A stretch of DNA of 35,837 nt from a virus (IMGVR_UViG_3300048577_000125:1-35837), one strand, 5' to 3'. Counted from the stretch's first letter, positions 1,801 to 35,837 are shown. Notes: generated by a model from the letters alone, not told the origin. Made by a program: numbers and translations.

Positions 1801-1830
1801 CAGTACCGCTAAGAAGCGTTATTGCGCCAG
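1801..1830 (+). other. dif/Xer-like site A
   Basis: CAGTACCGCTAA-GAAGCG-TTATTGCGCCAG, between tape measure and tail tip genes. Confidence 0.75.
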
Positions 1831-1838
1831 GTCAATCC

Positions 1839-1860
1839 TCACTGTCGTTTCCGACAGTGA
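1839..1860. repeat. 22-bp palindrome P1
   Basis: TCACTGTCGTTTCCGACAGTGA, 5 bp after the tape measure stop. Confidence 0.95.
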
Positions 1861-1865
1861 GCGCG

Positions 1866-3719
1866 CTAACGCACCATCACCGCCCCCGTCAGATCAATCT
1901 CCCGCTTCAGCGCCAGCGCCAGCTCCCTGATCTTCGTCCGGCTCGCCGGCAAATCCCCATCCCCATGCACATACAAATCAATCCGGCTGCTGCTGCTCCC
2001 GCCCCAGCCCGCCGCATCCGGGTAGATATACCCATCCGACTGCGGCACAAATACTTCCGCCCGCTTCTCCCCCACGATGTACGGCTGTCCCGCCGTCACC
2101 GGCCCGCCCACGGCCCGCCCCTCGAACGCCCCCAGCCCATACAAAATGGGCGACTTGAACATATCGACCATCGACGTAATTTCCCGCATTCGTTTGTCAA
2201 TTTCCATCAACTGGCCCCAGTCGCCCGCCTGGAGCGCCTGAAAACCCTGGCCCAGCAGCGCAAACCCCTCCGTCAGGTTGGCGATCATATCCGTCAGCCC
2301 CGCCACCGCCCGGCCCGTCACCGTGAGCACCCCGATCCAGAACTCCCCCCAGTCTGCCGAAGCCCCCGCCCCATCTCCCTGGAACCAGCCCACAATCTCC
2401 CCCAGGCTGGCCATGATTCTGCCCACATCCTGACCCACTGAATCCGCCGCCGTCGTCACCGTCGCCGCAATCTTCGGCCAGTACGCGCCGAAATCGTTCA
2501 CCAGCTTGACCACCTTCTCCGCCACCACCATGAAGAAGGCGACGATCTTCGGCCCGTTCTCGTCCGCCAGCTTAATCAGCACATCCAGCAGGCTGCGCAA
2601 CTGCGGCATCACCGCATTGCCGATGTCAATCGCTGTCTGGTCAATAATGCCCCGGAAAATGTCCCACTTGCCGGAGAGCGTATCCATGCGCGTGGCCGCA
2701 GCAGCCTCGGCGTCCGTCTTCGCCATCGTCGCCTTCAGCGCCAAAAACTCCGCCTCCGTCAGCCCCGCCATCGCCGCCGCCGCCCGCATCGCATCCGTCC
2801 CAAAAATGGTGCTCAGCGCCTGGTTCTTCTGCTCCTCGCTCAACCCCGCCAGCGCCGTGTTCAGGATGCCCGCAATCTCCCCCATCCCCTTCAGTTCCCC
2901 CGTCGCCGTGAAGAACTGGTTAGCGCCGTCGGCTGTAATCAGCCCCAGCGCCCGCATCGCGCTCTCAGCCTCATTCGACTTCGGCACCAGGTTCAGCAGC
3001 ATCGTCTTCAGCGAGGTCCCTGCATCGCTGCCGGAGGCAAACAGAGGCGAGATCGCCGCGATGGTGGCGTTAAAATCCTCGAACTCCACGCCCACCGTCG
3101 CCGCCACACCCCCGCCCTGCGCCAGCGCCAGCGCATAATCCTCGAAGCTGAACTTGCTCGCCTGCGTCGTCGCCAGGATGCCGTTGACAGCCTTATCCAT
3201 GTCCTTGGCCTGGATGCCAAACACCGCCATCACATCCGAGGCCGTCGCCGCCGCCGAGGCCATGTCGGCCCCCGTGGCGTTGCTCAGCAGCACCGTGCTG
3301 CGCGCCGCCCCATCCAGGATAGCCGCCACGCTCACGCCCGCCGTGCCCAGCACGCCAATCGCCGCCGCCGCCTCCTCCGCCCCCACCTTCAGCTTCGGAT
3401 CCAGCCCCAGGTCACGAATCAGCCCCCGCAGCGCCTCCGTCTCACCCGCCGAGGTGTTCATCGATGCCGCAATGTCCGCAATCCCCTGCTCCATCGCCAT
3501 CGCCTGGTCAACCGAACTTTTCATCGCCAGACCCAGCCCGCCGATGGCCGCCGCCCCGCCCGCCACCGCCGCGCCAAAACCCAGCTTCATAATGTTCCCG
3601 AAGCCGCCCACCTTCTGGCCCGACTTTTGCAGCGTGGAATCCACGCCCTTCATCTTCCGCTCAAACTCGGAAGTGTTGGCCCCCACCTTGGCGTATAGCG
3701 AAGCAATCTGGTCAGCCAT
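1866..3719 (-). CDS. Tail tape measure protein (TP901 family)
   Basis: 617 aa, Ala-rich; GSDAGTSLKTML and LSTIFGTDAMRAA motifs; position in the tail operon. Confidence 0.93.
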   Translation of the reverse strand: MADQIASLYAKVGANTSEFERKMKGVDSTLQKSGQKVGGFGNIMKLGFGAAVAGGAAAIGGLGLAMKSSVDQAMAMEQGIADIAASMNTSAGETEALRGLIRDLGLDPKLKVGAEEAAAAIGVLGTAGVSVAAILDGAARSTVLLSNATGADMASAAATASDVMAVFGIQAKDMDKAVNGILATTQASKFSFEDYALALAQGGGVAATVGVEFEDFNATIAAISPLFASGSDAGTSLKTMLLNLVPKSNEAESAMRALGLITADGANQFFTATGELKGMGEIAGILNTALAGLSEEQKNQALSTIFGTDAMRAAAAMAGLTEAEFLALKATMAKTDAEAAAATRMDTLSGKWDIFRGIIDQTAIDIGNAVMPQLRSLLDVLIKLADENGPKIVAFFMVVAEKVVKLVNDFGAYWPKIAATVTTAADSVGQDVGRIMASLGEIVGWFQGDGAGASADWGEFWIGVLTVTGRAVAGLTDMIANLTEGFALLGQGFQALQAGDWGQLMEIDKRMREITSMVDMFKSPILYGLGAFEGRAVGGPVTAGQPYIVGEKRAEVFVPQSDGYIYPDAAGWGGSSSSRIDLYVHGDGDLPASRTKIRELALALKREIDLTGAVMVR

Positions 3720-3938
3720 CTACCGCCCTCTGTTCTGCTGCCGCAGCCGCGCCAGCGCCCACCGATACCGCCCCCACAGATACATCTCCATCTGCATCAG
3801 CGGCCCCGGCTCCCCGGTCAGCATCTCGCGCACAGGCCGCCCGAACGTTTCAGCCTGTACAAATAACTCCATATTAGCCGTACTGCGCAGGTTGGCAGTC
3901 CCGTCGTTCGGGCGCTCTAGGAACCACCACCAGGAAAA
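3720..3938 (-). CDS. Tail assembly chaperone -1 frameshift extension (gpT-like)
   Basis: The -1 frame is open from TTTT (3935-3938) to TAG at 3720, abutting the tape measure ATG; internal ATG at 3872. Confidence 0.6.
   Translation of the reverse strand, partial: FSWWWFLERPNDGTANLRSTANMELFVQAETFGRPVREMLTGEPGPLMQMEMYLWGRYRWALARLRQQNRGR
3855..3885 (-). other. dif/Xer-like site B
   Basis: Minus strand CAGTACGGCTAA-TATGGAG-TTATTTGTACAG; both arms are GTAC type. Confidence 0.7.
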
Positions 3939-4255
3939 GCATCAAGCTTCTCCTGGTCATCGCCAAGCCCGCTCAACTCCGCCACCCGCACCGCAATCAC
4001 TTCAAAGCGCGGCGTCATCCCCGCCCGCAGCGCCAGCAACTGCTGCGCCGTCAGCGGCGGCTGAACCAGCCCCTCCGCCACCATATGCACCATCAGCAGC
4101 AGCGGGTCATTGCCCGCCGCCCGCTTCGCCCGCGCCACCTCCGCCACCGACAGCCCGCGCACGCGCACCAGCCCCAGGCCCTCAACCGCCAGATCTTCCG
4201 GCTCGCCCAGCACCCCGCGCAGAAAGTCATCCGCCGAAAGGTAACTACCCGACAT
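3917..4255 (-). CDS. Tail assembly chaperone (gpG-like)
   Basis: 112 aa between tail tube and tape measure; VRVRGLS motif. Confidence 0.75.
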   Translation of the reverse strand: MSGSYLSADDFLRGVLGEPEDLAVEGLGLVRVRGLSVAEVARAKRAAGNDPLLLMVHMVAEGLVQPPLTAQQLLALRAGMTPRFEVIAVRVAELSGLGDDQEKLDAFPGGGS

Positions 4256-4640: not shown

Positions 4641-4643
4641 ACC

Positions 4644-5538: not shown

Positions 5539-6234
5539 TCATGGGTGAAACACCGCCTGGCTGGGGTCCAGCCAGAAGCCATAGCCCTTGGCGTTGACCG
5601 CCGGACCCAGCATCGCATCCCGCTCCGAAAACCGGCACTGCCGCGCCACCACATCCCGCATCACCTTGCAGCTCCCCGCCGACTCCAGCCGCAGCAGCCC
5701 GCCCGCCGGCAGCGACGCCAGTCCCGGATGATACGGCGCATTCGGCCCGAACCGCTGCCCGTTCGCCCGATAGCCCCACGTGTCGTAAAAAAAGCCGCCC
5801 ATGTGCATCGACAGCGGGCTGACCACATCCACCGCCCTGCTCGTGTCGTTCAGCCGTTGCAGCAGCCGCACCATCGTCAGCGGCTCCCAAATCAGATCCG
5901 CCTCCACATAAATCAGCGCATCGAAGTCGTCCTCCTTGATGCGCTCAAACAGCCGGTTCCACGTCCGCGCAATATTCGCCCAGCGCGTCGGGTCATCGAT
6001 GCTGCCAAAACTTGGCCCGCCGTGGTCCAGCTTATAGATCGCCAGCCCCGGCGTATCCCGCACCGCCTCCACCAGCCGCGCCCACGTGTTGTCCGCCGAG
6101 TCGCCCTCCCCCACGCGCATCACCAGCGAGTCACCTCGCGCCGCCAGCACCTCCCGCAGCCCCGCCGCCTGGCGCAAATACCGCTCCAAATACCCCTCCG
6201 CATTGCGGAGGATGCTCGCCATCGCCACAATCAT
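5539..6234 (-). CDS. Glycosyltransferase, GT-A fold (GT2/Anp1-like)
   Basis: EGDSADNT, YVEADL (DxD-like) and FFYDTWGYR motifs. Confidence 0.75.
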   Translation of the reverse strand: MIVAMASILRNAEGYLERYLRQAAGLREVLAARGDSLVMRVGEGDSADNTWARLVEAVRDTPGLAIYKLDHGGPSFGSIDDPTRWANIARTWNRLFERIKEDDFDALIYVEADLIWEPLTMVRLLQRLNDTSRAVDVVSPLSMHMGGFFYDTWGYRANGQRFGPNAPYHPGLASLPAGGLLRLESAGSCKVMRDVVARQCRFSERDAMLGPAVNAKGYGFWLDPSQAVFHP

Positions 6235-6253
6235 CCGCCCCGCTCCTCTCCCC

Positions 6254-6275
6254 TCACTGTCGTTTCCGACAGTGA
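6254..6275. repeat. 22-bp palindrome P2
   Basis: Exact copy, intergenic between the two GT-A genes. Confidence 0.95.
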
Positions 6276-6281
6276 GCCGTG

Positions 6282-6312
6282 CTGTTGCGATAACCGCTTA
6301 TTACCTGTACAC
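6282..6312 (-). other. dif/Xer-like site C
   Basis: Minus strand GTGTACAGGTAA-TAAGCGG-TTATCGCAACAG, directly after the stop at 6314. Confidence 0.75.
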
Positions 6313-6313
6313 A

Positions 6314-6979
6314 TCAATGCACCACATGCGTCGTCGGGTCGGCCCAAATGCCAAACCCGCGCGCCTTCGCCAGCGCACAGAACCCGCGATCCACATCCTC
6401 GCTGCGATAGCGCACACCCGCGCGCAGCACCGCGATCTTGCTCAACAGCGTGCCGCCCACCGTGTCCATCTCAATCGGCTCGTCGCCAAACGCCGCAGCC
6501 TCCTCACGCCCAAAGTTCGTGAAAAACTGCCCGCCCCGGCTGAAGGCCCAGATGTCATAAAAGAACACGCCGCCTTGCCACGTGAACGGCGCAATGATGT
6601 CCTTGTCCGCTGCGATCAGCCGCTCCAGCAGGGCAGGCTCATAGCGGATGTCCGAGGGCAGGAACAGCACGTAATCCGACCAGCGGCAGTCCACCGCCTC
6701 CAGCCCAGCGTTGAACACCTGCGCCAGAATCTCAAACCGCTCCGCATTGACCACCGACGGATAACGCGGCCGCCCCGTGTCGCAGCGCACCACGTGCACC
6801 CAGCCCGCCGCCGCCTGCCAGCCCAACAGCGCCGCGCGCGTATCGTCCACGCTGTCCCCCTCCACGGCCACCACCACCAGCCGCCCGCCCGGCAGCGTCA
6901 ACCGCTCCACCCGCTCCCTATACGCCGCCACACCAGCCGCACCGGCATCGCGAAACGGGCTGACGATAGTCACGTTCAT
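6314..6979 (-). CDS. Glycosyltransferase, GT-A fold (GT2/Anp1-like)
   Basis: VTIVSPFRD, EGDSVDDT and FFYDIWAF motifs; paralogous to 5539..6234. Confidence 0.78.
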   Translation of the reverse strand: MNVTIVSPFRDAGAAGVAAYRERVERLTLPGGRLVVVAVEGDSVDDTRAALLGWQAAAGWVHVVRCDTGRPRYPSVVNAERFEILAQVFNAGLEAVDCRWSDYVLFLPSDIRYEPALLERLIAADKDIIAPFTWQGGVFFYDIWAFSRGGQFFTNFGREEAAAFGDEPIEMDTVGGTLLSKIAVLRAGVRYRSEDVDRGFCALAKARGFGIWADPTTHVVH

Positions 6980-7704
6980 AGCGCCAGCTCCATCCGTTCC
7001 GCCCGCCGCATCGCCTCATAGGTATCCATGTCGCGCACCTCCCAGCCGTTGTAAGTGGCGCAGGGCAGCGGCGGATAGGTCATCGCCCGCACAAACCGCT
7101 CCACATACTCCCACGGCCACGCTGGGTCAATCGCCCCGCCGTGTGGCGGCCCCGCATGATGGTACTGCGCCTGGCCGACCTGCGCGACCCCTGGAATGTC
7201 GAGAAACGCCAGCTTGATTGCCGCCGGCCAGCACTCGACCACCAGCCGGTTGATCTTATCGAACAGGCTCGCCTGCGTCTCATCCGGCGCAATCTGGCAC
7301 GTGCACTGCAAAATAATCCGCCCCGTGTCGATGCCCTCGTCCACCCAGTGATAGGTAATCCCCGTCACCGCGTCCCCATCCAGGATCGCCCACGGCACCG
7401 AACTGCGCCCCCGATGATTCGGCAGCAGCGCCGCATGGCAGTTGATCACCCGCCCGGCCATCCTTGCGATCACGGGCCGCCGGATGATGTGCAGATAGCC
7501 GATAGAGGCAATCGCTCCTGGTTTGTAAGGCCATTTCCCCAGGTCATTGACCGATTGCGTGCTGTACCAGACACCCAGCTCCCGCGCCGTGCGGATGATG
7601 TCCGCCCCTTCATGCGTGAAGAGCGCCACCTGGTGTTTCTGCTCAGCGCACTGGCGCAGGATCGCCTCGGCGGCTGGCCCCTTGCCGCAGATAAAAAGCA
7701 TCAC
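6976..7704 (-). CDS. Formyltransferase (Fmt/sugar N-formyltransferase family)
   Basis: INCHAALLPNHRGRSSVPWAI...TGITYHWVDEGIDTGRII signature. Confidence 0.9.
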   Translation of the reverse strand: MMLFICGKGPAAEAILRQCAEQKHQVALFTHEGADIIRTARELGVWYSTQSVNDLGKWPYKPGAIASIGYLHIIRRPVIARMAGRVINCHAALLPNHRGRSSVPWAILDGDAVTGITYHWVDEGIDTGRIILQCTCQIAPDETQASLFDKINRLVVECWPAAIKLAFLDIPGVAQVGQAQYHHAGPPHGGAIDPAWPWEYVERFVRAMTYPPLPCATYNGWEVRDMDTYEAMRRAERMELAL

Positions 7705-9701: not shown

Positions 9702-9713
9702 GTCTACCTGCTG

Positions 9714-9744
9714 CTGTACAGATAAGGGAACATTATCCCTACAC
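9714..9744 (+). other. dif/Xer-like site D
   Basis: CTGTACAGATAA-GGGAACA-TTATCCCTACAC, intergenic. Confidence 0.75.
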
Positions 9745-9746
9745 CC

Positions 9747-12541: not shown

Positions 12542-12543
12542 TG

Positions 12544-12573
12544 CTGTACAGGTAAGGCGTCTTATTCGCCCAG
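12544..12573 (+). other. dif/Xer-like site E
   Basis: CTGTACAGGTAA-GGCGTC-TTATTCGCCCAG. Confidence 0.75.
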
Positions 12574-12584
12574 GTTCAGCCCCG

Positions 12585-14764: not shown

Positions 14765-14765
14765 C

Positions 14766-14795
14766 CTGTATAGGTAACAACTGTTATTCCACCTG
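14766..14795 (+). other. dif/Xer-like site F
   Basis: CTGTATAGGTAA-CAACTG-TTATTCCACCTG; its TTA is the stop codon of 14784..15047. Confidence 0.72.
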
Positions 14796-15047
14796 CGTCA
14801 CTGTCGTTTCCGACAGTGAGAAATCATCGCACCATCCCGGCTTCGTATTCGCAACCGCATAGCCAAGGACTTTGAGTAGCGGATACCGCATCCACAGCCC
14901 ATGAATCACGTGGTAGACGAACCAGCCCAACCGCGTTGCCGGGCGCGGAATGTAACCGACGGGCAGCCACGCATCGTGCTCGCCCGCATCATCCGGCGGA
15001 TTCAGCCGCGCCACCTCTGCCGGCGTCAGCGCGTACCAGCCTGTCAC
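14784..15047 (-). CDS. Hypothetical protein
   Basis: 87 aa, start overlaps the portal stop. Confidence 0.55.
   Translation of the reverse strand: MTGWYALTPAEVARLNPPDDAGEHDAWLPVGYIPRPATRLGWFVYHVIHGLWMRYPLLKVLGYAVANTKPGWCDDFSLSETTVTQVE
14798..14819. repeat. 22-bp palindrome P4
   Basis: Exact copy, 2 bp from site F, in the last codons of 14784..15047. Confidence 0.95.
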
Positions 15048-16402: not shown

Positions 16403-17602
16403 CTAGAAATCGTAGAACGGATTACTTGCCACTGCCGGCTGCTGCTGCGCCGCCGTCCACGCCAGCGCCAAACTCATCACCATATCGTCGTGCATCCCCT
16501 CCGGCGCGCCATACCGCACCAGCCCGCTCGGCAGCCGCTCCATCTCATACGCTTGCAGCTCGCCGATCAACGTCGGGTCGGATAGGATGCGCAGCGCCCC
16601 CCGCTCAAACGCCAGCGCCAGCGCCTCAATCGCCTGCGTCTTCGTCGCGTTCGTCGTGTTGAACGCCGTCACCGGCAGCCCCTGCCGCCCCAACTGCTCA
16701 ATCAGCGGCTCCCCCATGCTGTTGCGCTCCGCCACCACCGTGATCGGCCTGAACCGCTCATACAGCCCTTGCAGCCGCCCCAACTGCACCTGGTAATCAA
16801 TCTGGTTGAAGCGGTCAATGGCCGCCACCGCCGCCTGCTGGAGGTCGATCACCGTCAGCACCGTGAAATCATTGTGCTTGCCCCAGTCCACCCCCATCGC
16901 ATACCGATGGCCCGCCTCCGCCTGCTCCTGCTGCGTCGCCGTGGCCGCCTCCACCACGCGCCGGAAGACCCCCCCCGCGTCGTCAATAAACTCCGCCAGG
17001 TACTCCTGCCGGAAAATCCGCTCCGGCAGGCTCAGCCGCGCCGCCTCAATCTCCGTGTGCGCAATATACGGATTCGTCGCCGTCGGGAACTGCCACGAAC
17101 GCCACTCCCCGCCCTCCTGGCCCCGCAGAAACGCCCGCCAGAACCAATTGCGCCCCTTCGGCGTGCTGATAAACAGCGCCCGCCCCAGCCGGTCACTCAG
17201 CGCCGGCCGCAGCGCCTCCGTCCACGCCTCCTCAGCGATAAACGCACACTCATCCATCACCAGGAAGTCCAGACCCTCGCCGCGCAACGCCTGCGGATTG
17301 TCCGCCGACCGCACCTGCACCGTCCCGCCGCCTGGCAGCACAACCATCTGCTCAGCCTTGCGCACCTCCGCCCCTGGCACTTGCGCCGCCAACTGCGTCA
17401 CCAGCCGCCAGCCCACAAACGCCATCTTATAGCTGGGCGCCACCCACCACGCCCGCCCCCGGCGCAGCGCCACCTCCAAGCAAAGCAGCGCCCCCAGCCG
17501 CGTCTTCCCCCAGCGCCGCCCGCACGCCAGCACCCGGAACCGGCTGCCATCCGCCACAATCACCTGCTGGCCGCTATGGATAGGAGGAAGCTGCACATTC
17601 AC
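16403..17602 (-). CDS. terL: Terminase large subunit
   Basis: GRRWGKT Walker A, LRGEGLDFLVMDE, STPKGRNWF, GVDWG and HDDMVMSLALA motifs. Confidence 0.96.
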   Translation of the reverse strand: MNVQLPPIHSGQQVIVADGSRFRVLACGRRWGKTRLGALLCLEVALRRGRAWWVAPSYKMAFVGWRLVTQLAAQVPGAEVRKAEQMVVLPGGGTVQVRSADNPQALRGEGLDFLVMDECAFIAEEAWTEALRPALSDRLGRALFISTPKGRNWFWRAFLRGQEGGEWRSWQFPTATNPYIAHTEIEAARLSLPERIFRQEYLAEFIDDAGGVFRRVVEAATATQQEQAEAGHRYAMGVDWGKHNDFTVLTVIDLQQAAVAAIDRFNQIDYQVQLGRLQGLYERFRPITVVAERNSMGEPLIEQLGRQGLPVTAFNTTNATKTQAIEALALAFERGALRILSDPTLIGELQAYEMERLPSGLVRYGAPEGMHDDMVMSLALAWTAAQQQPAVASNPFYDF

Positions 17603-17631
17603 AGGCTCAATAAGTCCCCTTACCAGTACAG
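17602..17631 (-). other. dif/Xer-like site G
   Basis: Minus strand CTGTACTGGTAA-GGGGAC-TTATTGAGCCTG between terS and terL; the spacer doubles as a likely RBS. Confidence 0.72.
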
Positions 17632-17635
17632 CCCA

Positions 17636-19478: not shown

Positions 19479-20408
19479 CTACCCCAGCCGCCAGTTATCC
19501 ACCGGCGAGGCCCGCCTGTGCGCCTCCGCAATATCCGTCTGCGCCAGCGCCAGATAGCGCCGCACCATCTCCATCGTGCTGTGGCCCAGCAGCCGTTGCA
19601 GCGTGTACACGTCCCCGCCGTTGCGCAGATAATTGATCGCAAACGTGTGGCGCAGCCGATGCGGTGTCACCGGCTCCACAATCTCCGCCCGCTGGCCGGC
19701 AGCCAGCAGCAGCTTGCGCAGCGCGTTGCGGTCCATCGCAGAGTGTTTCGTCGTCTCAAACAGCGGATCGTCAGGCCGCGTGTCCTTGCGCTTTGCGAGG
19801 TAGCGCCACAGAGACTCACGCGCCAGGTTCCCCAGGTAGACCGTCCTCCCCTTATCGCCCTTGCCGCGCCGCACCTGCGCCGCCCCCGTCTTCATATCCA
19901 CATCGCCGAGCAGCAGGTCGCACAACTCCGCCGCCCGGATGCCCGTATCCAGCAACGCGAGGATGATAGCCCGATCCCGCACGCGTGTGCTGCGCAGCGT
20001 CGTCGGCCCGCTGCGCTTCCCCTCCCATTCCGCAGTCCGCTCGCACGCCAGCAGCAGCCCGCGCAAGTCCTGCTTGCTCAGCGGAATAATCTCCCGGCTG
20101 GCGGCCGCCGGCATCTTGACCCTGTAGCGCCGGATCACATGCTCCACGCCCATCTCCCCCTCCAGCCACGTGAAGAAGGCACTTAACCCGATCCATGCAT
20201 TCTTGACCGTCTTCGGGCTCAGCTTCTCTTCAATGCGCAGATGGTACAGGAATCTGCGCACGTGGTCGGCTGCCAGATCGCCCGTGTCCACATCGCCAAT
20301 CAGCCGCACCCACTTATGCAGCGTGTTGGCATACTCGCGCATCGTGTTGATCGAGCCTGCTCCGGCCCGGAACAACAAAAACCCCTCAATCGCCAGACTG
20401 AGACGCAT
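19479..20408 (-). CDS. int: Tyrosine integrase (XerC/D-like)
   Basis: DTGIRAAEL, GKGDKGR, HRLRHTFA and LLGHSTMEMVRRY motifs; adjacent to attP. Confidence 0.95.
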   Translation of the reverse strand: MRLSLAIEGFLLFRAGAGSINTMREYANTLHKWVRLIGDVDTGDLAADHVRRFLYHLRIEEKLSPKTVKNAWIGLSAFFTWLEGEMGVEHVIRRYRVKMPAAASREIIPLSKQDLRGLLLACERTAEWEGKRSGPTTLRSTRVRDRAIILALLDTGIRAAELCDLLLGDVDMKTGAAQVRRGKGDKGRTVYLGNLARESLWRYLAKRKDTRPDDPLFETTKHSAMDRNALRKLLLAAGQRAEIVEPVTPHRLRHTFAINYLRNGGDVYTLQRLLGHSTMEMVRRYLALAQTDIAEAHRRASPVDNWRLG

Positions 20409-20486: not shown

Positions 20487-20498
20487 GCACATGTGTTC
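20487..20498 (-). promoter_or_regulatory. Possible LexA box upstream of the integrase
   Basis: GAACACATGTGC, one mismatch. Confidence 0.4.
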
Positions 20499-20530
20499 TG
20501 TTCTGATAATAAAATTGCGCTGTATAAACA

Positions 20531-20562
20531 GACAGCCACTCCTGGTCACAGGAGTGGCTGTC
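20531..20562 (-). terminator. Terminator hairpin downstream of the tRNA fragment
   Basis: Perfect 14-bp inverted repeat GACAGCCACTCCTG-GTCA-CAGGAGTGGCTGTC, then TGTTTAT on the minus strand. Confidence 0.7.
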
Positions 20563-20579
20563 GAACAACAAAACTATAG

Positions 20580-20623
20580 TGGGCGAGGAGGGACTTGAAC
20601 CCGCGACCTCACGGATGTGAACC
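20580..20623 (-). other. attP: attP core: 3' half of tRNA-Val(CAC)
   Basis: GG-TTCACAT-CCGTG-AGGTC-GCGGGTTCAAGTCCCTC-CTCGCCCA gives anticodon loop, T-arm and acceptor 3' strand; no 5' half; next to int. Confidence 0.85.
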
Positions 20624-20745
20624 ATCCTCCCCCGTGCCGCCACTCCCAGCCGCACGGCCCTCAGTTATCACCCATCCATGCGGCTTCCGCTGCTCCCAAC
20701 CATCCGCCGTATGGATGCGGCTGCCGACGCGTCCCCGGCGGCCTC

Positions 20746-20776
20746 CTGTACCGATAACGGCTTGTTATCAGTACAG
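20746..20776 (+). other. dif/Xer-like site I (most symmetric copy)
   Basis: CTGTACCGATAA-CGGCTTG-TTATCAGTACAG. Confidence 0.8.
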
Positions 20777-20829
20777 CACCTCGTTTTGCACCTTGCGGCC
20801 ACGTTGGACAAAACCCGCGCGGCCCCCGC

Positions 20830-22241: not shown

Positions 22242-22263
22242 ACTTAGATGTTACCCCAAAACT

Positions 22264-22352
22264 AACCAAGTTGTTTAGTGAACTTGCGCTAAGGTATTGA
22301 CAAGTCCAACCATATTGGTTTATACTTTGGCTGTCTGCTGAACAATATGGTT
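22264..22352 (+). promoter_or_regulatory. Early promoter and three operator-like repeats
   Basis: TTGACA(22297)-18-TATACT(22321); AACCAAGTTGTT, AACCATATTGGT and AACAATATGGTT. Confidence 0.75.
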
Positions 22353-22626: not shown

Positions 22627-23763
22627 ATGGGAGTGCAAACCTATATGAGCCAATCACAGATCGCCGCCACAACCACCGACATCATCCTTGCCCAGCCCGC
22701 CATCGGCCTCGGCAGTTGGATCGTCCCCGGCGTCGAAGACGGCGACATGCAAGCCATCGCCTGGCAGCGCGCCAAAGACGCCTGGCTCGAATCCAAGCGC
22801 CGCAAGAGTGGCAGCGCCAGCACCGTCCGCGCCTACCAAGGCGACTGGACGCAATTTTTCACCTTTGTGGAGAAAGCGCCGTGGAACGTCAGCAGCCGCG
22901 ACGCCGACGCCTGGATCGGCCAACTGCAAGCGCAGGGAACCAGCCAGACCAGCATCAACCGCAAGCTCGCCGCCCTCAGCAGCTTCTTCCAGTTCGTCAT
23001 CGACAAATTCACCTTCGTCGGTCGCGACCAGATCGAACGCACCATCTACATCGACAGCCACGGCAACCCCCGCGGCAACCCCTTCCGCAAGCCGGAGCGG
23101 TTCAAAGTCGATCAGTACAACCATAGCAGCCCGATGTCCGTTGAAACCGTCAAAACGGTTCTCAAGGCCATCAACGCCAAGAGCCTGCTCGGCAGCCGCG
23201 ACCATGCCCTCATCGTCGCCTACCTCTACACGGGCCGCCGATCATCCGAGATCGCCAACCTGCGCTGGGAAGACATCGACGTAGACGACGTCAAAGGCCG
23301 CTACTACTACACCTGGCTGGGCAAGGGAGCGAAGGGCCGCACCGACGAACTGCCCGCCCCCGCCTACCATGCCATCCTCAACTTCCTGCGCGTCACCGGT
23401 CGGCTGGCAACCATCCAGGCCAAAGATTACATCTTCCAGGCCGTCTACGCCGACCGTGCGCAGCGCCTCCCCAACGTGCGCAGCGCCCCGGCCGCCAACC
23501 GCCCCATCAGCGGGTCGATGATCAACCGCATCGTGAAAAGGCACTTCGTCAAAGCCGGCGTCCCCGCCGCCAGCATCCACACCCACACGCTGCGCCACAC
23601 CGCCGCCCACCTGCGCTACCGCGACGGCGCCGGCCAGGACCTCCTCGCCGTCAGCCGTTTCCTCAACCATTCATCGGTTGCCATCACGCAGATTTACCTG
23701 TCGAAAATGCAGAAGCCCGTAGACACCGGCTGGACGGAGGTGGAGCAGCTACTGATGTACTGA
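22627..23763 (+). CDS. Second tyrosine recombinase
   Basis: STVRAY...SINRKLAALSSFF core-binding domain; TGRRSSEI, GKGAK, HTLRH and LNHSSVAITQIY catalytic motifs. Confidence 0.93.
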   Translation: MGVQTYMSQSQIAATTTDIILAQPAIGLGSWIVPGVEDGDMQAIAWQRAKDAWLESKRRKSGSASTVRAYQGDWTQFFTFVEKAPWNVSSRDADAWIGQLQAQGTSQTSINRKLAALSSFFQFVIDKFTFVGRDQIERTIYIDSHGNPRGNPFRKPERFKVDQYNHSSPMSVETVKTVLKAINAKSLLGSRDHALIVAYLYTGRRSSEIANLRWEDIDVDDVKGRYYYTWLGKGAKGRTDELPAPAYHAILNFLRVTGRLATIQAKDYIFQAVYADRAQRLPNVRSAPAANRPISGSMINRIVKRHFVKAGVPAASIHTHTLRHTAAHLRYRDGAGQDLLAVSRFLNHSSVAITQIYLSKMQKPVDTGWTEVEQLLMY

Positions 23764-23785
23764 TAAGAGAAGGTTATCAACACTC
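23755..23785 (+). other. dif/Xer-like site J
   Basis: ATGTACTGATAA-GAGAAGG-TTATCAACACTC; contains the stop codon of recombinase 2. Confidence 0.7.
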
Positions 23786-23873
23786 GGCAACAAAAAGAGG
23801 GCCGCTGCGAGGAGCATCGCAGCGGCCAAAGAATCGCAGGGAGTGCAGCGATTACAACCAAAGGATAGCACAC

Positions 23874-27160: not shown

Positions 27161-28084
27161 ATGAGATACATCAGTTTGTTTTCTGGCATAGGGGCAATTG
27201 ACCTGGGTCTGGATCGTGCCGGTATGACGTGCGTTGCGCAGGTTGAGAATGACGCAGCAGCGCGCGGCGTGCTCGCGGCCCACTGGCCCGACGTTCCCCG
27301 GTTCGATGACGTGCGCAACTTTGGAAGAAAGGTATTCGATGGATCAGTTGACCTTATTGCAGGAGGATTCCCCTGTCAGGACGTATCACTTTCCGGGCAG
27401 CGCGCGGGCTTGGCTGGAGAGCAAAGCGGCTTATGGTGGCAGTTCCGTCGCATTATTAGGGAGCTTACGCCACGATGGGTTGTTGTCGAAAACGTGCCCG
27501 GCCTTCTATCCAGCAACGCCGGCCGGGACTTTGCCACCGTCGTTCGCGGGCTGGTCAAGTGCGGGTATGGCGTCGTCTGGCGGGTTCTGGACTCTCAGTT
27601 TTTCGGAGTCGCCCAGCGTCGGCGCCGTGTGTTCATTGTCGGAAGTCTTGGAGACGGATGTGCCGCTGAAGTTCTTTTTGAGCCAGTCGGCCTGCAAGGG
27701 AATCCTGCGCCGCGCCGCAAAACGTGGGAAGAAGTTACCAGCACGCTTGGAGCAAGCTCTAAAGCTGGTGGTAGGCGATCAACCGACCTAGACGGCGCAG
27801 GAGCATACATCGTCGCCTTTGCCCACAAGTTTGCGGGGAACAACCGTACTAGCATTGTGCGTGCTGGCGATTATGCAGGCACCATCAGCGCGACCAGGCA
27901 AGATGCTATTAGCGGCAGCTTTGGCGTTCGTCGACTGACCCCGCTGGAGTGCGAACGGCTTCAAGGTCTCCCCGATGGCTGGACGGCAGGGCAGGCAGAT
28001 AGCCACCGATACCGGCAGCTTGGCAACGCTGTCGCCGTGCCGGTAGTCGAGTGGATCGGCAGCCGAATCATGCAGTACAGATAA
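27161..28084 (+). CDS. dcm: C5-cytosine DNA methyltransferase
   Basis: SLFSGIG, GGFPCQD, VENVPG, QRRRRVF, RRLTPLECERLQG and GNAV motifs. Confidence 0.95.
   Translation: MRYISLFSGIGAIDLGLDRAGMTCVAQVENDAAARGVLAAHWPDVPRFDDVRNFGRKVFDGSVDLIAGGFPCQDVSLSGQRAGLAGEQSGLWWQFRRIIRELTPRWVVVENVPGLLSSNAGRDFATVVRGLVKCGYGVVWRVLDSQFFGVAQRRRRVFIVGSLGDGCAAEVLFEPVGLQGNPAPRRKTWEEVTSTLGASSKAGGRRSTDLDGAGAYIVAFAHKFAGNNRTSIVRAGDYAGTISATRQDAISGSFGVRRLTPLECERLQGLPDGWTAGQADSHRYRQLGNAVAVPVVEWIGSRIMQYR
27339..27791 (+). CDS. Nested +1-frame polypeptide within dcm (M.EcoHK31I beta-like)
   Basis: ATG with GAAAGG RBS; SLSEVLETDVPLKFFLSQSACKGILRRAAKRGKKLP. Confidence 0.6.
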   Translation: MDQLTLLQEDSPVRTYHFPGSARAWLESKAAYGGSSVALLGSLRHDGLLSKTCPAFYPATPAGTLPPSFAGWSSAGMASSGGFWTLSFSESPSVGAVCSLSEVLETDVPLKFFLSQSACKGILRRAAKRGKKLPARLEQALKLVVGDQPT

Positions 28085-28102
28085 GGAGGATTATTTCTAC
28101 AT
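28073..28102 (+). other. dif/Xer-like site L
   Basis: CAGTACAGATAA-GGAGGA-TTATTTCTACAT; the TAA is the dcm stop and the spacer is the RBS of the next gene. Confidence 0.8.
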
Positions 28103-28490
28103 GAACGACATCAACGACGAAGAAGACATGACCTACGAACTCAGCGCCACCCCGCGCACTCTGGACGCCTACCAGAGTGAGGCAATGAACACCCGTAATT
28201 CAGACACCGACCTGCTGTACAGCGCCGGCAAGCTCACCATCGAAGCCGCCGAATTGCAGCAGCACGTCCTCAAAGCGCGCTACCACGGCAAACTAGCCTC
28301 CTCCGCCGCCATGCTGGAGGAACTCGGCGACGTGCTCTGGTACGTCGCCGCCGTGGCCACCGACCTCGGCCTCACCCTCAGCGACGTAGCAGAATGCAAC
28401 CTCGCCAAGCTGCGCGTTCGCCACGGCAGCGCCTACAACCCTGCGCACTACCAAGGCGCAGCCTGGAACCAGCACGAACAGGAGCGATAG
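28101..28490 (+). CDS. MazG-like nucleotide pyrophosphohydrolase
   Basis: EAAEL...LEELGDVLWYVA...NLAKLRVR. Confidence 0.88.
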   Translation: MNDINDEEDMTYELSATPRTLDAYQSEAMNTRNSDTDLLYSAGKLTIEAAELQQHVLKARYHGKLASSAAMLEELGDVLWYVAAVATDLGLTLSDVAECNLAKLRVRHGSAYNPAHYQGAAWNQHEQER

Positions 28491-30620: not shown

Positions 30621-30635
30621 CCGGAGCACACAACC

Positions 30636-30962: not shown

Positions 30963-30984
30963 GGAGCCTGCCGAGCCATCACCG

Positions 30985-31015
30985 CAGTACCGCTAACAAC
31001 GGCTTATCACAACAG
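30985..31015 (+). other. dif/Xer-like site M
   Basis: CAGTACCGCTAA-CAACGGC-TTATCACAACAG, just before the FtsK gene. Confidence 0.78.
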
Positions 31016-31020
31016 AACGC

Positions 31021-32331
31021 ATGGGAGTGCATGTGAACGCCAACAACATCAAGCCCCTGATCGAAGGGGAAATCAAACTCATCAACCGCCTGCTCCAGGC
31101 GCAAGGCATTCAGGCCGCCGCCAGCCTGAAGCGCACAATGGTCGCCGCCAGCAGCTTCATTGCCTACGGCCTGAAACTGGCCCCTGACCAAACCATCAAG
31201 AGCATCGAGGCCATCACCCGCGAACTCGCCAACGAACTCACCCTCAACCGCGCCCGCCGCGGCCACCCCCAGCCCTGCCCCGTCCGCCTGCGTGAATACC
31301 CCCTCGCCCTCGAAGTCCCCCACCCCTGCCCCACACCTCTCGACTGGCGCGCCGCCACCCTGCGCAGCAAACCCATGCTCGCCACGGTCGGCCGCAGCTA
31401 CACCCTCACCGGCGCGCAGCAGGAGCAGATCGACCTCCAACGCCACTACCACATGCTCGTCGCCGCCATGTCCGGCGCCGGCAAATCCACCCTCATGCGC
31501 ATGGCCCTCGCCACCGTCGCCCTCAACACCGCCCCGCGTGACCTCCGCATCATGCTCATCGACCTCAAAGCCGATGACCTGGTTCCCTTCCGCCGGCTGC
31601 CCCACGTCATCAGCCTCGCCAGCAGTGTCGATGCCGCCGCCGCCATCATCGCCCAGGTCCACCAGCTCCGCGACGACCGCATCGCCGGCGCAGCCCGTGA
31701 CTACCGCCTCCTGCTCATCATCGACGAACTCGCCGAACTGGGCGAGCGCAAAGAAGTCCTGCTCCAGCTCGGCCGCATCCTCAGCACCGGCCGCAGCCTC
31801 GCCATCAACGTCTGGGCCGGCACCCAATACCCCACCGCCGCCACCATCGGCAGCGTCGTCGCCAAATCCTTCACCACGCGCATCGTCGGCCGCGTCGATG
31901 GCGCCCAGGCCGCCCAGGTTGCCACGCAGCGCCCCAAATCGGGCGCCCAGTACCTCGCCCACCCCGGCGACTTCATTCGGGTCGATGGGCCTGATATGCA
32001 GCGCCTGAAGGCGTTCAACCTGGGTCAGGACGCCACCGCCAGCCTCGTCACCGCCATCAGCCAATCATGGAGCGCGCCCGCCCAGCCCGCCCCCCTCACT
32101 GTCGTTTCCGACAGTGAGCCGGCCGCCGCCCATCCCAACCCCGCCGACGAAATCGCCGCCATCGCCGCCACCATCCAGCCCCTCTGGGGGCAGGGGGCCA
32201 GCCTCGCCGCCATGATCCGCACCGTCTACGGCGACCACGCCAACACCGGCGGCAGCAACCGCCTGCGCATCATGCAGGCCATCAACCGCCTGAACAGCAC
32301 CAGCGCCGCCCACTCGCAAGCAGCCGACTAA
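31021..32331 (+). CDS. FtsK/SpoIIIE-family ATPase
   Basis: HMLVAAMSGAGKST, LIDLK, LLIIDELAEL, GRSLAI and TQYP motifs. Confidence 0.9.
   Translation: MGVHVNANNIKPLIEGEIKLINRLLQAQGIQAAASLKRTMVAASSFIAYGLKLAPDQTIKSIEAITRELANELTLNRARRGHPQPCPVRLREYPLALEVPHPCPTPLDWRAATLRSKPMLATVGRSYTLTGAQQEQIDLQRHYHMLVAAMSGAGKSTLMRMALATVALNTAPRDLRIMLIDLKADDLVPFRRLPHVISLASSVDAAAAIIAQVHQLRDDRIAGAARDYRLLLIIDELAELGERKEVLLQLGRILSTGRSLAINVWAGTQYPTAATIGSVVAKSFTTRIVGRVDGAQAAQVATQRPKSGAQYLAHPGDFIRVDGPDMQRLKAFNLGQDATASLVTAISQSWSAPAQPAPLTVVSDSEPAAAHPNPADEIAAIAATIQPLWGQGASLAAMIRTVYGDHANTGGSNRLRIMQAINRLNSTSAAHSQAAD
32096..32117. repeat. 22-bp palindrome P8 (inside the FtsK gene linker)
   Basis: Exact copy encoding (L)TVVSDSE in a Pro/Ala linker. 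Confidence 0.95.
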
Positions 32332-32346
32332 CCAAGGAGCAGACAC

Positions 32347-32838: not shown

Positions 32839-32849
32839 GAGACCACCCT

Positions 32850-33662
32850 ATGAAGCAATTCGCATTGGCATTCGTGGTGATCATCTTCGGCGCACTCGCC
32901 TGGCTCGCCGCCAGCCAACTCGATTCCTTCACCTTGGGAATGGCTATCGGCATGATTTTCGGTGTCCTGGCCGGCGTGCCCGTCGCACTGCTGACGCTGG
33001 CCGCCAACAACCGCCGCGCCGACGACGACGAAGACGGCCCCCCGCCGCCGCGCCAAAGCGCCATCATCCTGGATGCGCCGGTTGCGCCGGCTGCCCCTGC
33101 GTTGCCCACCCAGCCCACACGCCGCGCAGCATGGACACAGGCGCAGGTGCGGCGGCTCACCGGCTTCCAATATGTAGATGACACACGGACGCGAGCGCGG
33201 CTGGCCGCGTGCGGTGTCCAATCGCTGCCCTGCACTCATGCCCTGCTGGCGAATGAGGACGTGGCGATCCTGCGCGTCTACTACGCAGAGGGCTATTACG
33301 CCAAAGCCGCGCTGCCGCTGACGGCACAGGCCGCCACCGCTGCCCGCCATTGCTGCGACGATCCCGCAGCCATCGCGGTGGAGGTGCATCACCGCGATGC
33401 CATGATTTTCGCCTGGATGCGCCCCGCCGCAGCGCAGCCGGCAGCCGGCAGCCAGTTGGCCCGCCGCCCCTCTTGCCATGTGCGCCCGCAGCCCCCGCGC
33501 CTGCGTCAAGCCGCGGACGACGACGAATACTATGAGGCTGTGACCGTCGAAGAGGAACTTTCCAGCGCCGCCACCCAGCCCGCCAACTGGGATGCCTGGG
33601 GCGACGACGACGACCCCGAAGACCCCCCCGACGCCTGGGGCGACGACGAAGACGACGACTAA
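32850..33662 (+). CDS. Two-TM membrane protein with acidic tail
   Basis: Start ATG 32850 with AGGAG; GMAIGMIFGVLAGVPVALL; repeated DAWGDD(D/E). Confidence 0.7.
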   Translation: MKQFALAFVVIIFGALAWLAASQLDSFTLGMAIGMIFGVLAGVPVALLTLAANNRRADDDEDGPPPPRQSAIILDAPVAPAAPALPTQPTRRAAWTQAQVRRLTGFQYVDDTRTRARLAACGVQSLPCTHALLANEDVAILRVYYAEGYYAKAALPLTAQAATAARHCCDDPAAIAVEVHHRDAMIFAWMRPAAAQPAAGSQLARRPSCHVRPQPPRLRQAADDDEYYEAVTVEEELSSAATQPANWDAWGDDDDPEDPPDAWGDDEDDD

Positions 33663-33669
33663 CCCACGC

Positions 33670-33700
33670 AAAAAGGCCCCGGCAACCCGCCGGGGCCTTT
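33670..33700. terminator. Bidirectional terminator between convergent early and late operons
   Basis: AAAAAGGCCCCGGC-AACCC-GCCGGGGCCTTT. Confidence 0.85.
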
Positions 33701-33706
33701 CCCATC

Positions 33707-33736
33707 CTGTACCGCTAAGTGCAGTTATCTCGCCTA
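33707..33736 (+). other. dif/Xer-like site N
   Basis: CTGTACCGCTAA-GTGCAG-TTATCTCGCCTA; overlaps the stop of 33734..34264. Confidence 0.75.
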
Positions 33737-34264
33737 ATTATCCCCAAACGCCACCCGCAGCCAGCTAGACCCCACGCAGAACAGCAGCACCACATCACCC
33801 GTGCCGCCCAGCGTCACATCAGCCCCCAACAGCAAATTCCCCGTGCCCGTCTTCAGCGTCACATCGCGCGCCCCGGCCACCGTGCGCAGCAGCAGCAACT
33901 GCCCCGTCGTCCCCCCGTTGATCGTGTCCAGATCATCCGTGGCGGCCCCGCCCTCCGTGTCAATCGTGTGGTAATTGCCCGTCACCGTGATCACGCCGCC
34001 GCTGATCGTCAGCGACCCGCCGAGTGGCAGCAGCGCCCGATCCTGCAACATCGCCGTCCCGCTCCCCGTCAGCGTCAGCTCCGTTCCGTCCCCCGTGATC
34101 AGCTTCTTCCCCGCATCCGACCGCGCCACATAGCTGGCTGGCAACCGCTTGTTCGTCCCGCTGGCCGCCATCGTCGTGTCCGAGACATCCACCACCATCA
34201 GCATATCATTCGTCGCCGGCGTCGCCGCCAACTGCGCCAACTGCGTCGTTTTTGCATCCGCCAT
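33734..34264 (-). CDS. Minor tail/fibre-associated protein
   Basis: Gly/Thr-rich; IDTEGGAATDDLDTINGG; last late gene. Confidence 0.65.
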   Translation of the reverse strand: MADAKTTQLAQLAATPATNDMLMVVDVSDTTMAASGTNKRLPASYVARSDAGKKLITGDGTELTLTGSGTAMLQDRALLPLGGSLTISGGVITVTGNYHTIDTEGGAATDDLDTINGGTTGQLLLLRTVAGARDVTLKTGTGNLLLGADVTLGGTGDVVLLFCVGSSWLRVAFGDN

Positions 34265-34276
34265 ATTCCACCATCC

Positions 34277-35837
34277 TTACGTGATCAACACCGTACCGTT
34301 ATTGATCTCCAGCCTGCGCACATTAAGAAAATTATCCGTCAGGTACAAATACCGCCAGCCGTGGCTGGAATCCCCCAGGCTCCGCGCCAGCGAATTATTG
34401 GGCCGGAGGTCATAATTCGCGATTCCGTCCACATCCAGCACCAGGTAATGCCCCGTCACCCCCGCCTGCAACGCAATAATATCCGCCGACCCGCTAGTCG
34501 TCAGCCGCATCTCACGCCCCACCGCCCGGTTGGCCATGTGCAGCATCCCCACCGCCCCGCCGCCTGTATCCAGCCAATCCAGGCCAAACTCTGCATTCAC
34601 CACGCTGCCCATATACAGCCCGAACCCGCGGCTGCCATCCAGCCGCGCCGTCCCGCTCGTCGCCGGGAACTGCGCCGTGCCGCCCGTAATCTGCGCCCCG
34701 CTCACCGTCCCCGCCGTCACCAGCGCCCCGCTCACCGTGCCGCCGCTGATCGTGTTCGCCGTCACCGCCACGCCCGTGATCGTGCCGCCCGTGATGCGTG
34801 ACCCCGTCACCGTGCCGCCGCTGATGCTGTTGCCGCTCACCACCGCCCCGCTCACCGTGCCGCCCGTGATGCTGTTCGCCGTCACCGCCACACCCGTAAT
34901 CGTGCCGCCCGTGATGCGCGACCCCGTCACCGTGCCGCCCGTGATGCTGTTGGCCGCCACCGCCACACCCGTGATCGTGCCGCCCGTAATCTGCGCCCCG
35001 TTCACTGTGCCGCCCGTGATGCTGTTGGCCGCCACCGCCACGCCCGTGATCGTGCCGCCCGTGATGCGTGACCCCGTCACCGTGCCGCCCGTCACCGTGC
35101 TCGCACTCACCGCCCCGCTGAACGCGCCATCCGACGCCGTCATCTGTCCCGTCGTCGCATCCAGCGAAAACTTTGTCGCCCCCGTCGGCCCATAGCCAAA
35201 GATACCGGAGGAATCCATCTGCACGCGCGGGTTCGCCGTCCCCGTGCGAATGATCGACGCCGAGTAAACCTCATACACCGTGTTCAGAATCGTGCCCGAA
35301 GAGAACAGCGGCCTGTCCGCCGGGTCGGTCGGCAGCTTGAACGTCACCCCCAGCGTCCCATACCCGATCAGCCCCGTGGCGTCCATCATCACGCCCGGAT
35401 TGCTCGAATTCACCGGGTTCGCCGACGTGCGCACCGTCCCCCCATAGACCAGCGCCCCCGCCACCGTGCCGCCGCTCACCAGCGCCCCCGTCACCGTCCC
35501 GCCCGTGATGCGCCCGCCGCTCACCGTGCCGCCGCTCACCAGCGCCCCAGTGATCGTCCCGCCGTCAATATAATTCCCTGTTACCTGTACACCCGTGATC
35601 GTGCCGCCGCTGATGTTCGAGCCATAAATCGTGCTCGCCGCCACCTGCCCCTGGAAATACCCATTGTCCGTCCAGATGCCCCAGCCGCTCGGCGTCACCG
35701 TCCCCACCGCCGGCAGCCCATCCATCTCGCCCAGCTTCAGCCGCGCCGCCCCCACATCATAGATGTACAGCGCCCCGCGCGGCTCGCTCCCGCTGTCGTC
35801 CAGCCCCACCACCACGCCCGAATGGTAGTTTGGCGTC
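34277..35837 (-). CDS. Large tail tip protein, 3' part with beta-helix-like GGT(V/I)TG repeats
   Basis: Continuation of 1..1794; repeats such as GGTVTGSRITGGTITGVAVAANSIT. Confidence 0.8.
   Translation of the reverse strand, partial: TPNYHSGVVVGLDDSGSEPRGALYIYDVGAARLKLGEMDGLPAVGTVTPSGWGIWTDNGYFQGQVAASTIYGSNISGGTITGVQVTGNYIDGGTITGALVSGGTVSGGRITGGTVTGALVSGGTVAGALVYGGTVRTSANPVNSSNPGVMMDATGLIGYGTLGVTFKLPTDPADRPLFSSGTILNTVYEVYSASIIRTGTANPRVQMDSSGIFGYGPTGATKFSLDATTGQMTASDGAFSGAVSASTVTGGTVTGSRITGGTITGVAVAANSITGGTVNGAQITGGTITGVAVAANSITGGTVTGSRITGGTITGVAVTANSITGGTVSGAVVSGNSISGGTVTGSRITGGTITGVAVTANTISGGTVSGALVTAGTVSGAQITGGTAQFPATSGTARLDGSRGFGLYMGSVVNAEFGLDWLDTGGGAVGMLHMANRAVGREMRLTTSGSADIIALQAGVTGHYLVLDVDGIANYDLRPNNSLARSLGDSSHGWRYLYLTDNFLNVRRLEINNGTVLIT
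35562..35592 (-). other. dif/Xer-like site O (intragenic, tail protein)
   Basis: Minus strand GTGTACAGGTAA-CAGGGAA-TTATATTGACGG; left arm identical to site C. Confidence 0.6.
35711..35837. repeat. Terminal direct repeat (copy of 1-127)
   Basis: Exact match. Confidence 0.95.

Follow-up and report, generated by a model that had tools for sequence, protein, structure and literature searches.

In the pdif modules of Acinetobacter Rep_3/OrfX plasmids, which have several two-armed sites of the layout ATAA-N6-TTAT on each replicon, sites recombine when their spacers are identical or near-identical, and single modules are replaced between replicons, as is proposed via a cointegrate (PMC13141974). 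Bacteriophage P1 packages about 112% of its genome and has in Cre-loxP a multimer resolution system (PMC10999674), and headful packagers carry permuted, terminally redundant DNA (PMC11769102; for background on recombination and packaging, see PMC3784561). Other systems place many sites between genes. Integrons in phages combine a tyrosine recombinase with many recombination sites (PMC9892861), whereas Cluster A mycobacteriophages carry repressor sites named stoperators at gene junctions, 24 in L5 and 34 in Bxb1, which are 13-bp, asymmetric, and oriented along transcription (PMC3029335). Short conserved boundary sequences where flanks reassort by general recombination were also proposed as a model for phage mosaicism (PMC3029335). 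Here, we describe a 35,837-nucleotide stretch of viral DNA (IMGVR_UViG_3300048577_000125:1-35837, named the window below), which is divided by a lattice of 14 two-armed sites, each with its own spacer. From sequence comparison, it is probable that they are spacer-matched crossover sites of a phage recombinase, for which the second of two encoded tyrosine recombinases (rec2) is the best candidate. The lattice is a real, widespread feature of Chloroflexota-type phages and apparently an undescribed one: searches of the open literature, which took in no subscription journals, turned up no account of unique-spacer sites forming such a genome-wide lattice in a tailed phage.

The first 127 bases of the window recur at 35711, giving a circular assembly with 35,710 unique bases. 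Within these, the word TAA-N6/7-TTA occurs 14 times, and GTA stands at the arm position in 14/14; 200 dinucleotide shuffles contained on average 0.85 such words and 0.015 with the arm (maximum 1), and 200 order-3 Markov controls 0.01 arm-bearing words. All 14 sites lie where the earlier note placed them, and its description of a two-armed site of the tyrosine recombinase type, with arms around an inner TAA...TTA core, holds for each. One further word, TAA-N5-TTA at 34324, lacks the arm. A single consensus, about SCWGTACAGA-TAA, describes both arms of the sites, of which one is usually the stronger. The spacer is 6 nt at seven sites and 7 nt at seven, and all 14 spacers differ, as had been claimed, those of the same length by at least 2 mismatches in direct or inverted comparison. 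Orientation is mixed; the strong arm is on the right at the sites starting at 6282, 17602, and 35562, which corrects the earlier description. On independently made gene calls, 13 of the 14 sites (twelve had been counted before) touch a gene end or intergenic DNA, compared with 14% of positions (binomial p 9e-11). The five stop codons said to be supplied by sites were found, as were the ribosome-binding sites GGAGGA ahead of mazG and GGGGAC ahead of terL. Numbered in simple order along the window, the sites are:

1800..1831, plus strand: S1, spacer GAAGCG, between tape-measure and tail genes
3854..3886, no strand assigned: S2, spacer CTCCATA, two strong arms, at a tail-chaperone open reading frame (ORF) junction
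6281..6313, minus strand: S3, spacer CCGCTTA (plus strand), between two glycosyltransferase-like genes
9713..9745, plus strand: S4, spacer GGGAACA, between head-completion genes
12543..12574, plus strand: S5, spacer GGCGTC
14765..14796, plus strand: S6, spacer CAACTG, supplies the stop codon at 14784
17601..17632, minus strand: S7, spacer GTCCCC (plus strand), between terS and terL
20745..20777, no strand assigned: S8, spacer CGGCTTG, the most symmetric site, upstream of int1
23754..23786, plus strand: S9, spacer GAGAAGG, overlaps the rec2 stop codon
27124..27155, plus strand: S10, spacer TCACCG, left border of the dcm slot
28072..28103, plus strand: S11, spacer GGAGGA, right border of the dcm slot
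30984..31016, plus strand: S12, spacer CAACGGC (CAACCGC in locus L202), before the FtsK-family gene
33706..33737, plus strand: S13, spacer GTGCAG, where early and late operons converge
35561..35593, minus strand: S14, spacer TTCCCTG (plus strand), inside a 1,075-amino-acid tail gene

The only site deep within a gene, S14, cuts the longest gene nearly in half. It is written into one copy of a coding repeat, in which 7 of 9 codons end in A or T, compared with 0-1 of 9 in the 12 other copies. The gene itself spans the contig ends (34277-35710 and 1-1794) and encodes 13 GGT(I/V)(T/S)G repeats with no Pfam match.

A property absent from the earlier note is the even spacing of the sites, which lie on average 2.55 kb apart (range 0.95-3.43 kb). 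The coefficient of variation (CV) of this spacing is 0.26, whereas random points give 0.91 and randomly chosen gene junctions 0.85, and 0/20,000 simulations matched it under both nulls. The largest inter-site gap, 3.4 kb, corresponds to 9.6% of the genome. When terminal redundancy was simulated at 8%, a whole site was inside it in 95% of cuts, compared with 69% for 14 random sites and 8% for one site. At 10% redundancy the value was 100% and at 5% it was 66%, while a single-site genome gave 10% and 5%, respectively.

The comparison of related loci (G and L numbers are our handles for the genomes and loci compared) points to crossovers at matching spacers. At the first site after rec2 in the subgroup of the related phage G003, the spacer CAAACCC is present in 12/12 distinct loci (identity 1.00), while the arms average 0.80 and 0.90 identity and the flanks 0.31-0.46. 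Between L200 and L207, L204 and L223, and L213 and L215, the upstream side is at about 0.3 identity and the downstream side at 0.8-1.0; the switch falls exactly at the site, and the left arms differ. Between L207 and L223 the switch at the site runs in the reverse direction, and L203 and L219 have only the spacer and core in common. A second case is the slot between S10 and S11. Its spacers TCACCG and GGAGGA flank dcm in the window and, with order and orientation unchanged, other small genes in two unrelated phages, G005 and G006. Both genomes were picked up by a search pattern that ignored the spacer. Among the 44 viral loci that carry the S11 core, G+C content exceeds 60% in these two only, and in each of them the S10 partner, oriented alike, lies 1.0-1.3 kb upstream. 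Locus L202 carries near versions of these spacers, TCGCCG and GAGGGGA. The two spacers around dcm thus suggest, on comparative grounds, the footprint expected of crossovers that need matching spacers. The cargo in G006 (L248 8920-9440), G005 (L237 9197-10698, minus strand), and L202 (15564-16165) has a common EVQP-stop junction motif, because of which the slot is considered homologous in these three. The motif overlaps the next start and forms a second, finer layer of gene-boundary repeats.

These data bear on several earlier proposals. Swaps at equivalent sites between phages gain comparative support from identical spacers with reassorted flanks and from breakpoints at sites in relatives, and the idea that unique spacers would block self-deletion agrees with no two same-length spacers being closer than 2 mismatches. 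The suggested Tn916-like tolerance of unlike spacers gains no support from the comparison, because the mosaics share identical spacers. An integron-like cassette system is not supported either: no module has a matching site pair on both sides, and of three of the 14 sites that were folded, two fold poorly as single strands (S8 z -3.1, S10 z -1.3, S2 z +1.1). Unlike in integrons, there are neither attC-type hairpins nor an attI-cassette array, the sites border multi-gene blocks including essential genes, and rec2 and int1 score 57 and 94 bits against an integron-integrase cut-off of 265. Two side observations concern the movement of sites and blocks. L199 at 7692 and L202 at 18489 (minus strand) have the same left arm core and spacer in non-equivalent places, before int1 and before ftsK, which hints at sites copied to new places. 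A 790-nt stretch at 32909-33700, 90% identical to G005 (L237 6221-7001), a phage with which the window otherwise shows no relation, ends 6 nt before S13, and G005 has no good site at the end of this stretch.

A structural parallel lies with pdif sites, which also have two arms of about 11 bp around a short spacer and the inner TAA...TTA core seen at 14/14 lattice sites, and which also swap modules at matching spacers, as comparison indicates for the S10-S11 slot and the CAAACCC set. However, the pdif distinction between a XerC arm and a conserved XerD arm is absent, both lattice arms following one consensus and neither resembling the XerD arm. Also absent are the fixed 6-bp spacer (7/14 spacers have 7 nt here, and all 14 in G003) and the alternating inverted orientation with repeated spacers, S9-S13 running in the same orientation. 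Whereas pdif uses host XerC/XerD, the lattice has a phage-encoded candidate enzyme, belongs to a tailed phage, and extends evenly through essential genes.

The genome, with a G+C content of 65%, encodes head, tail, terminase, portal, repressor, replication, methylase, and FtsK-family proteins, together with two tyrosine recombinases. It is a Chloroflexota-type temperate phage; among species genomes, int1 has its closest relatives almost exclusively in Chloroflexota, so that the host probably belongs to this phylum. The features outside the lattice that the argument needs are:

16403..17602, minus strand: large terminase of the Terminase_6N/6C family, putatively for headful packaging; an SPP1-type portal and a Mu-F head protein are encoded next to it
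19479..20408, minus strand: int1, tyrosine integrase, probably tRNA-targeting, no site linkage in 80 host-genome loci
20577..20633, minus strand: tRNA-like 3' half, candidate attP core for int1, by eye Val (CAC), weak Rfam match (E 0.005)
22297..22326, plus strand: Sigma-70-type promoter match (11/12) ahead of the RHH-rec2 operon
22627..23763, plus strand: rec2, second tyrosine recombinase, 378 amino acids, with R205, H320, R323, H348, and Y357 intact, putative cognate enzyme
27161..28084, plus strand: dcm C5-methyltransferase gene, cargo of the S10-S11 slot in the window
31021..32331, plus strand: FtsK/SpoIIIE-family ATPase, which may be an accessory factor and has a loose link with the lattice

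The earlier note had assigned the sites to the recombinase at 22627-23763, and this assignment is strengthened by its intact catalytic residues and by its position. Among 42 aligned rec2-family proteins R205, R323, H348, and Y357 are invariant, and K233 and H320 are at least 90% conserved. The structure model has a fold of the XerA/XerH/Cre type and is about 17% identical to Cre in structural alignment. A site lies within 600 nt of rec2 in 16/18 close-clade loci and 4/15 distant loci, and within the same distance of int1-like genes in 5/80 host loci; seven duplicate or flank-poor metagenome loci were left out of the rec2 count, and one of the close-clade misses has no downstream DNA. The family comprises 115 relatives at E 1e-30 or better, about 60 of them above 50% identity, and stands apart from int1 in the tree, in which lattice phages do not form one clade. 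While a single-protein scan of viral contigs for rec2 returned nothing, an alignment search gave 4 viral loci, 26 metagenome loci, and no match in GTDB species genomes; no orthologue was found in isolated phages, the best match being 29.5%. It was proposed earlier that the sites would be refuted as recombination sites if they proved to be operators of the repressor or the RHH protein, but their consensus follows neither regulator. The repressors of the window and G003 are 22% identical and the RHH proteins unalignable, yet the site consensus is the same. G001, in turn, encodes close relatives of the repressor (58%) and RHH protein (60%) but has one site, and the repressor-RHH control region contains no lattice site. 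Because a site usually adjoins rec2 in its close clade, and the sites do not follow the repressor or RHH protein and are not enriched in candidate host genomes, rec2 is likely the cognate enzyme, although int1 is not formally separated from it since both travel together. The candidate attP beside int1 assigns integration to int1, which leaves rec2, the second gene downstream of a near-consensus early promoter, needing another job. FtsK was rejected as a required partner: the window, G003, L202, and G004 encode it, yet so do the lattice-free G002 and G554, and G553 gave no tblastn match. To go with the tRNA-like half at 20577..20633, ARAGORN found no whole tRNA. Upstream of int1 there is also a lone strong half-site (20497-20531), kept in G001 (L253 near 8555, minus strand) within a longer imperfect inverted repeat, which could let rec2 regulate int1.

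The resemblance to Cre-loxP is that of a phage tyrosine recombinase with intact catalytic residues, a XerA/XerH/Cre fold, and a two-armed site beside its gene. In contrast to Cre-loxP, there are 14 sites with different spacers instead of one, and a separate integrase is encoded. The single-site state is seen in G001 and G002.

Lattices were also found in other phages. G003 (35.9 kb), identified by motif scan, has 14 similar sites, all with 7-nt spacers (CV 0.32, largest gap 11.3%). It has int1 (65%), rec2 (66%), FtsK, ParB, and replication genes in common with the window but almost no structural genes. G004 (59 kb) has 18 listed sites with a largest gap of 8.5%, one of them inside its 1,053-amino-acid primase gene, and G553 (43 kb) has 10 sites with a largest gap of 16%; both lists include hand-picked degenerate sites. 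Both genomes were found by the DNA motif alone, and both encode a rec2-family protein (37% and 31%). The structural fragments G008 and G414 carry 6 and 7 sites, and no recombinase was found in their available parts. G004, G553, G008, and G414 have the core GATAA-N6/7-TTATC, and their spacing is more even than random (p under 0.0001 to 0.048). Among shorter loci, L202 has 10 sites in 20 kb and L199 5-6 in 10 kb. The position of S8 upstream of int1 is kept, with a variable spacer, in L198, L199, L200, L202, and L206, and it is the sole site of the cos-type phage G001. The two motif scans took in 12 and 9 of the 64 parts into which the viral collection is divided, and more members were likely missed. 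TerL similarity alone does not account for the lattice, since no arm-bearing array or second repeat was found in the 80 best terminase relatives. De novo search for gapped palindromes of another kind in G001, G002, G313, and L220 gave no comparable lattice. The G554 provirus (L463, 10076-16648) encodes a serine integrase, an HK97-type portal, and FtsK; its five sites, clustered in the early region, have their own arm consensus, and no rec2 match was found in it.

What such a lattice would be for is a separate question, and we see an even chance that it exists for circularisation or sister-copy joining of headful-packaged DNA. It is proposed that rec2 would bind both arms as a homodimer, Cre-style, that two such sites would synapse, and that strand exchange would require the same 6- or 7-nt spacer. 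If spacer identity is needed, the 14 sites cannot delete or invert each other, and each, being unique, is specific for its own redundant copy. Virion DNA that is circularly permuted and about 8-12% terminally redundant would nearly always contain one whole site twice in direct repeat. Then rec2, made early, could circularise the redundant DNA without a phage annealing protein and, by joining sister copies in the same way, make or resolve multimers. In the presence of a relative or prophage with the same spacers, one crossover would swap flanks and two would swap the block between two sites, resulting in mosaics. In P1, Cre circularises infecting DNA, and there is essentially one lox site. More tentatively, and with somewhat less than an even chance of being right, one lox-like site may have been expanded in a family of Chloroflexota phages to a genome-wide lattice of mutually incompatible, spacer-coded sites spaced to the headful redundancy. 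One enzyme would then replace homologous recombination in circularising the DNA and handling multimers, the genome would be quasi-segmented, and module exchange would be a side effect. The terminase of the window belongs to the Terminase_6 family and is accompanied by an SPP1-type portal; its best full-length matches (30-35%) are to terminases of Thermus and other phages, which we take to be headful packagers. Of nine rec2-family phages with a terminase sequence available, the lattice is present in 6/7 of the non-HK97 type and 0/2 of the HK97 (cos) type, the latter being G001, with one site in 27 kb, and the G313 prophage, with none in 44 kb. No RecT, Erf, or Sak family matches were found among the window proteins (38 against Pfam, 29 against PHROGs).

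A number of observations weigh against circularisation by a spacer-specific rec2. Packaging mode and redundancy are read from the terminase family only, and the terminases of G004, G008, and G414 are of the GpA family. Of the sequencing runs listed, none contains this phage, and three that were examined yielded short off-target pieces only, with no joint at a site. The association with terminase type is weak (Fisher p 0.083), the genomes not being independent. The lack of annealing proteins does not separate lattice phages from others, as none turned up in phages without a lattice (83 ORFs, seven genomes). The largest gaps in G553, G414, and G008 measure 5.8-6.9 kb. G002 combines a Terminase_6 protein, a rec2-like gene, and FtsK but has only one site, while G416, with an HK97-type terminase, has 2-3 sites in a 12.7 kb early-region fragment. 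G554, G005, and G006 have their sites confined to the early accessory region, and searches of them for rec2 were negative; gene exchange accounts for this pattern better than circularisation does. As for the enzyme, 11/15 distant rec2 relatives have no site nearby, and int1 and rec2 co-occur in every lattice phage with the early region available. The spacer rule meets difficulties too. The S8 spacer varies between close relatives (G003 vs L199, 4/7), the arms being at 0.92 and 0.88 and the spacer at 0.66. The S7 spacer differs from that of the L202 site at the same terS-terL junction, and equivalent junctions of G008 and G414 differ. G003 has four same-orientation direct-repeat spacer pairs one base apart, which is awkward for strict orthogonality, and several spacers double as ribosome-binding sites and could be conserved for that other reason.

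An alternative is that the lattice was selected mainly for module exchange between co-infecting phages and prophages, as a natural form of recombinase-mediated cassette exchange in which even spacing is secondary. We consider this possible but rather unlikely. Spacers identical across reassorted flanks, the S10-S11 slot with dcm in the window and EVQP-junction small genes in L202, G005, and G006, and the accessory-only sites of G554, G005, and G006 are all consistent with it, and single-module replacement between near-identical spacers is known from pdif modules (PMC13141974). However, shared spacers are expected even as a by-product, when only matching sites cross over, and the equivalent junctions of more distant pairs differ in spacer (S7 vs L202; G008 vs G414; S8 in G003 vs L199). 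Nor does exchange alone predict spacing more even than random junction choice (0/20,000) or sites placed throughout the essential head-tail operon and forced into long genes. The earlier claim of module exchange thus stands as far as the swaps themselves are concerned, but exchange alone leaves the very even spacing, the sites in the head-tail operon, and the mid-gene S14 unexplained, and because of these the circularisation model is preferred.

The remaining explanations do without a spacer-matching phage recombinase. It is improbable that the sites are bound without strand exchange, as stoperator-like roadblocks or as anchors with which rec2 organises or relaxes DNA. Many copies of one motif at the gene junctions of a temperate phage do recall the Cluster A stoperators (PMC3029335), stop codons and ribosome-binding sites coincide with several of the lattice sites, and the arms of S8 are more conserved than its spacer. 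Stoperators, however, are asymmetric and follow transcription, whereas lattice sites are two-armed dyads with unique centres in mixed orientation; the independence of the consensus from the regulators in G003 and G001 and the lack of a site in the control region also argue against operators, and binding alone leaves spacers conserved beyond the arms unexplained. The action of host XerC/XerD or another host recombinase, with rec2 as a bystander, we regard as quite improbable. The inner core fits the pdif layout (PMC13141974), one arm is usually stronger, and G006 has two sites in a circular record with no tyrosine recombinase. On the other hand, there is no XerD-type arm, half of the spacers are 7 nt, and rec2 is far below the XerC and XerD cut-offs (105 vs 335 and 100 vs 330 bits). 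The strong-arm pattern does not behave as a host site present once per genome: it gave 13 matches in 12/151 genomes of a Caldilineaceae-centred family set, and the reversed control gave more; no motif excess was seen in these 151 candidate host genomes or in five further Chloroflexota genomes. The part of a dif survey drawn on here lists only three Dehalococcoides strains in this phylum (PMC3025954). Least credible, and highly improbable in our estimate, are short conserved boundary sequences for ordinary homologous recombination with no site-specific enzyme. Such a model exists for phage mosaicism (PMC3029335), and the loci of one subgroup are identical over a contiguous run of about 30 bases. 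However, in the S10 set and in L203 vs L219 only core and spacer match, with arms differing at 2-5/10 positions, and the model leaves the dyad symmetry, one consensus at 14 places, and the even spacing unexplained. The lattice, moreover, has a candidate enzyme of its own.

Some further features of the genome are worth noticing. A second repeat, a perfect 22-bp palindrome with 9-bp arms and a 4-nt centre TTTC/GAAA, has 8 copies in the window (1839, 6254, 9747, 14798, 19455, 20830, 25537 (reversed), and 32096), two of which fall within the ParB-Dam and FtsK genes, while four are no more than about 40 nt away from a lattice site. In L202 there are 7 copies with the centre ATTC, several at equivalent places, and no other locus compared had any. 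A host REP was rejected as its identity (0/151 candidate host genomes match, and there were 0 viral matches); it is possibly a parS-like or operator site. Short palindromes unlike the lattice sites surround the divergent promoters at 22250-22352 and are candidate repressor operators. The head-tail operon includes four glycosyltransferase-like/formyltransferase genes (5539-9005), possibly for virion or DNA modification, and a similar GT4 gene is present in the G313 prophage. A 185-amino-acid ORF (27234-27791) overlaps dcm on the same strand in another frame.

What produces the clean joints between unrelated genes at module borders in phages has long been an open question, and most borders have no explanatory sequence. 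At its borders the lattice offers a defined site along with a spacer code and a candidate enzyme, which makes the question of module joining directly testable in vitro. A second, separate prediction is that the terminal redundancy of the virion DNA is at least as long as the largest inter-site gap. Should rec2 prove to follow the spacer rule, a single small enzyme and 14 natural, non-cross-reacting sites of two lengths would constitute a multi-site cassette-exchange tool. If the quasi-segmented reading is true, these phages would possess a natural orthogonal set of recombination sites, and phage mosaicism would gain a defined mechanism.

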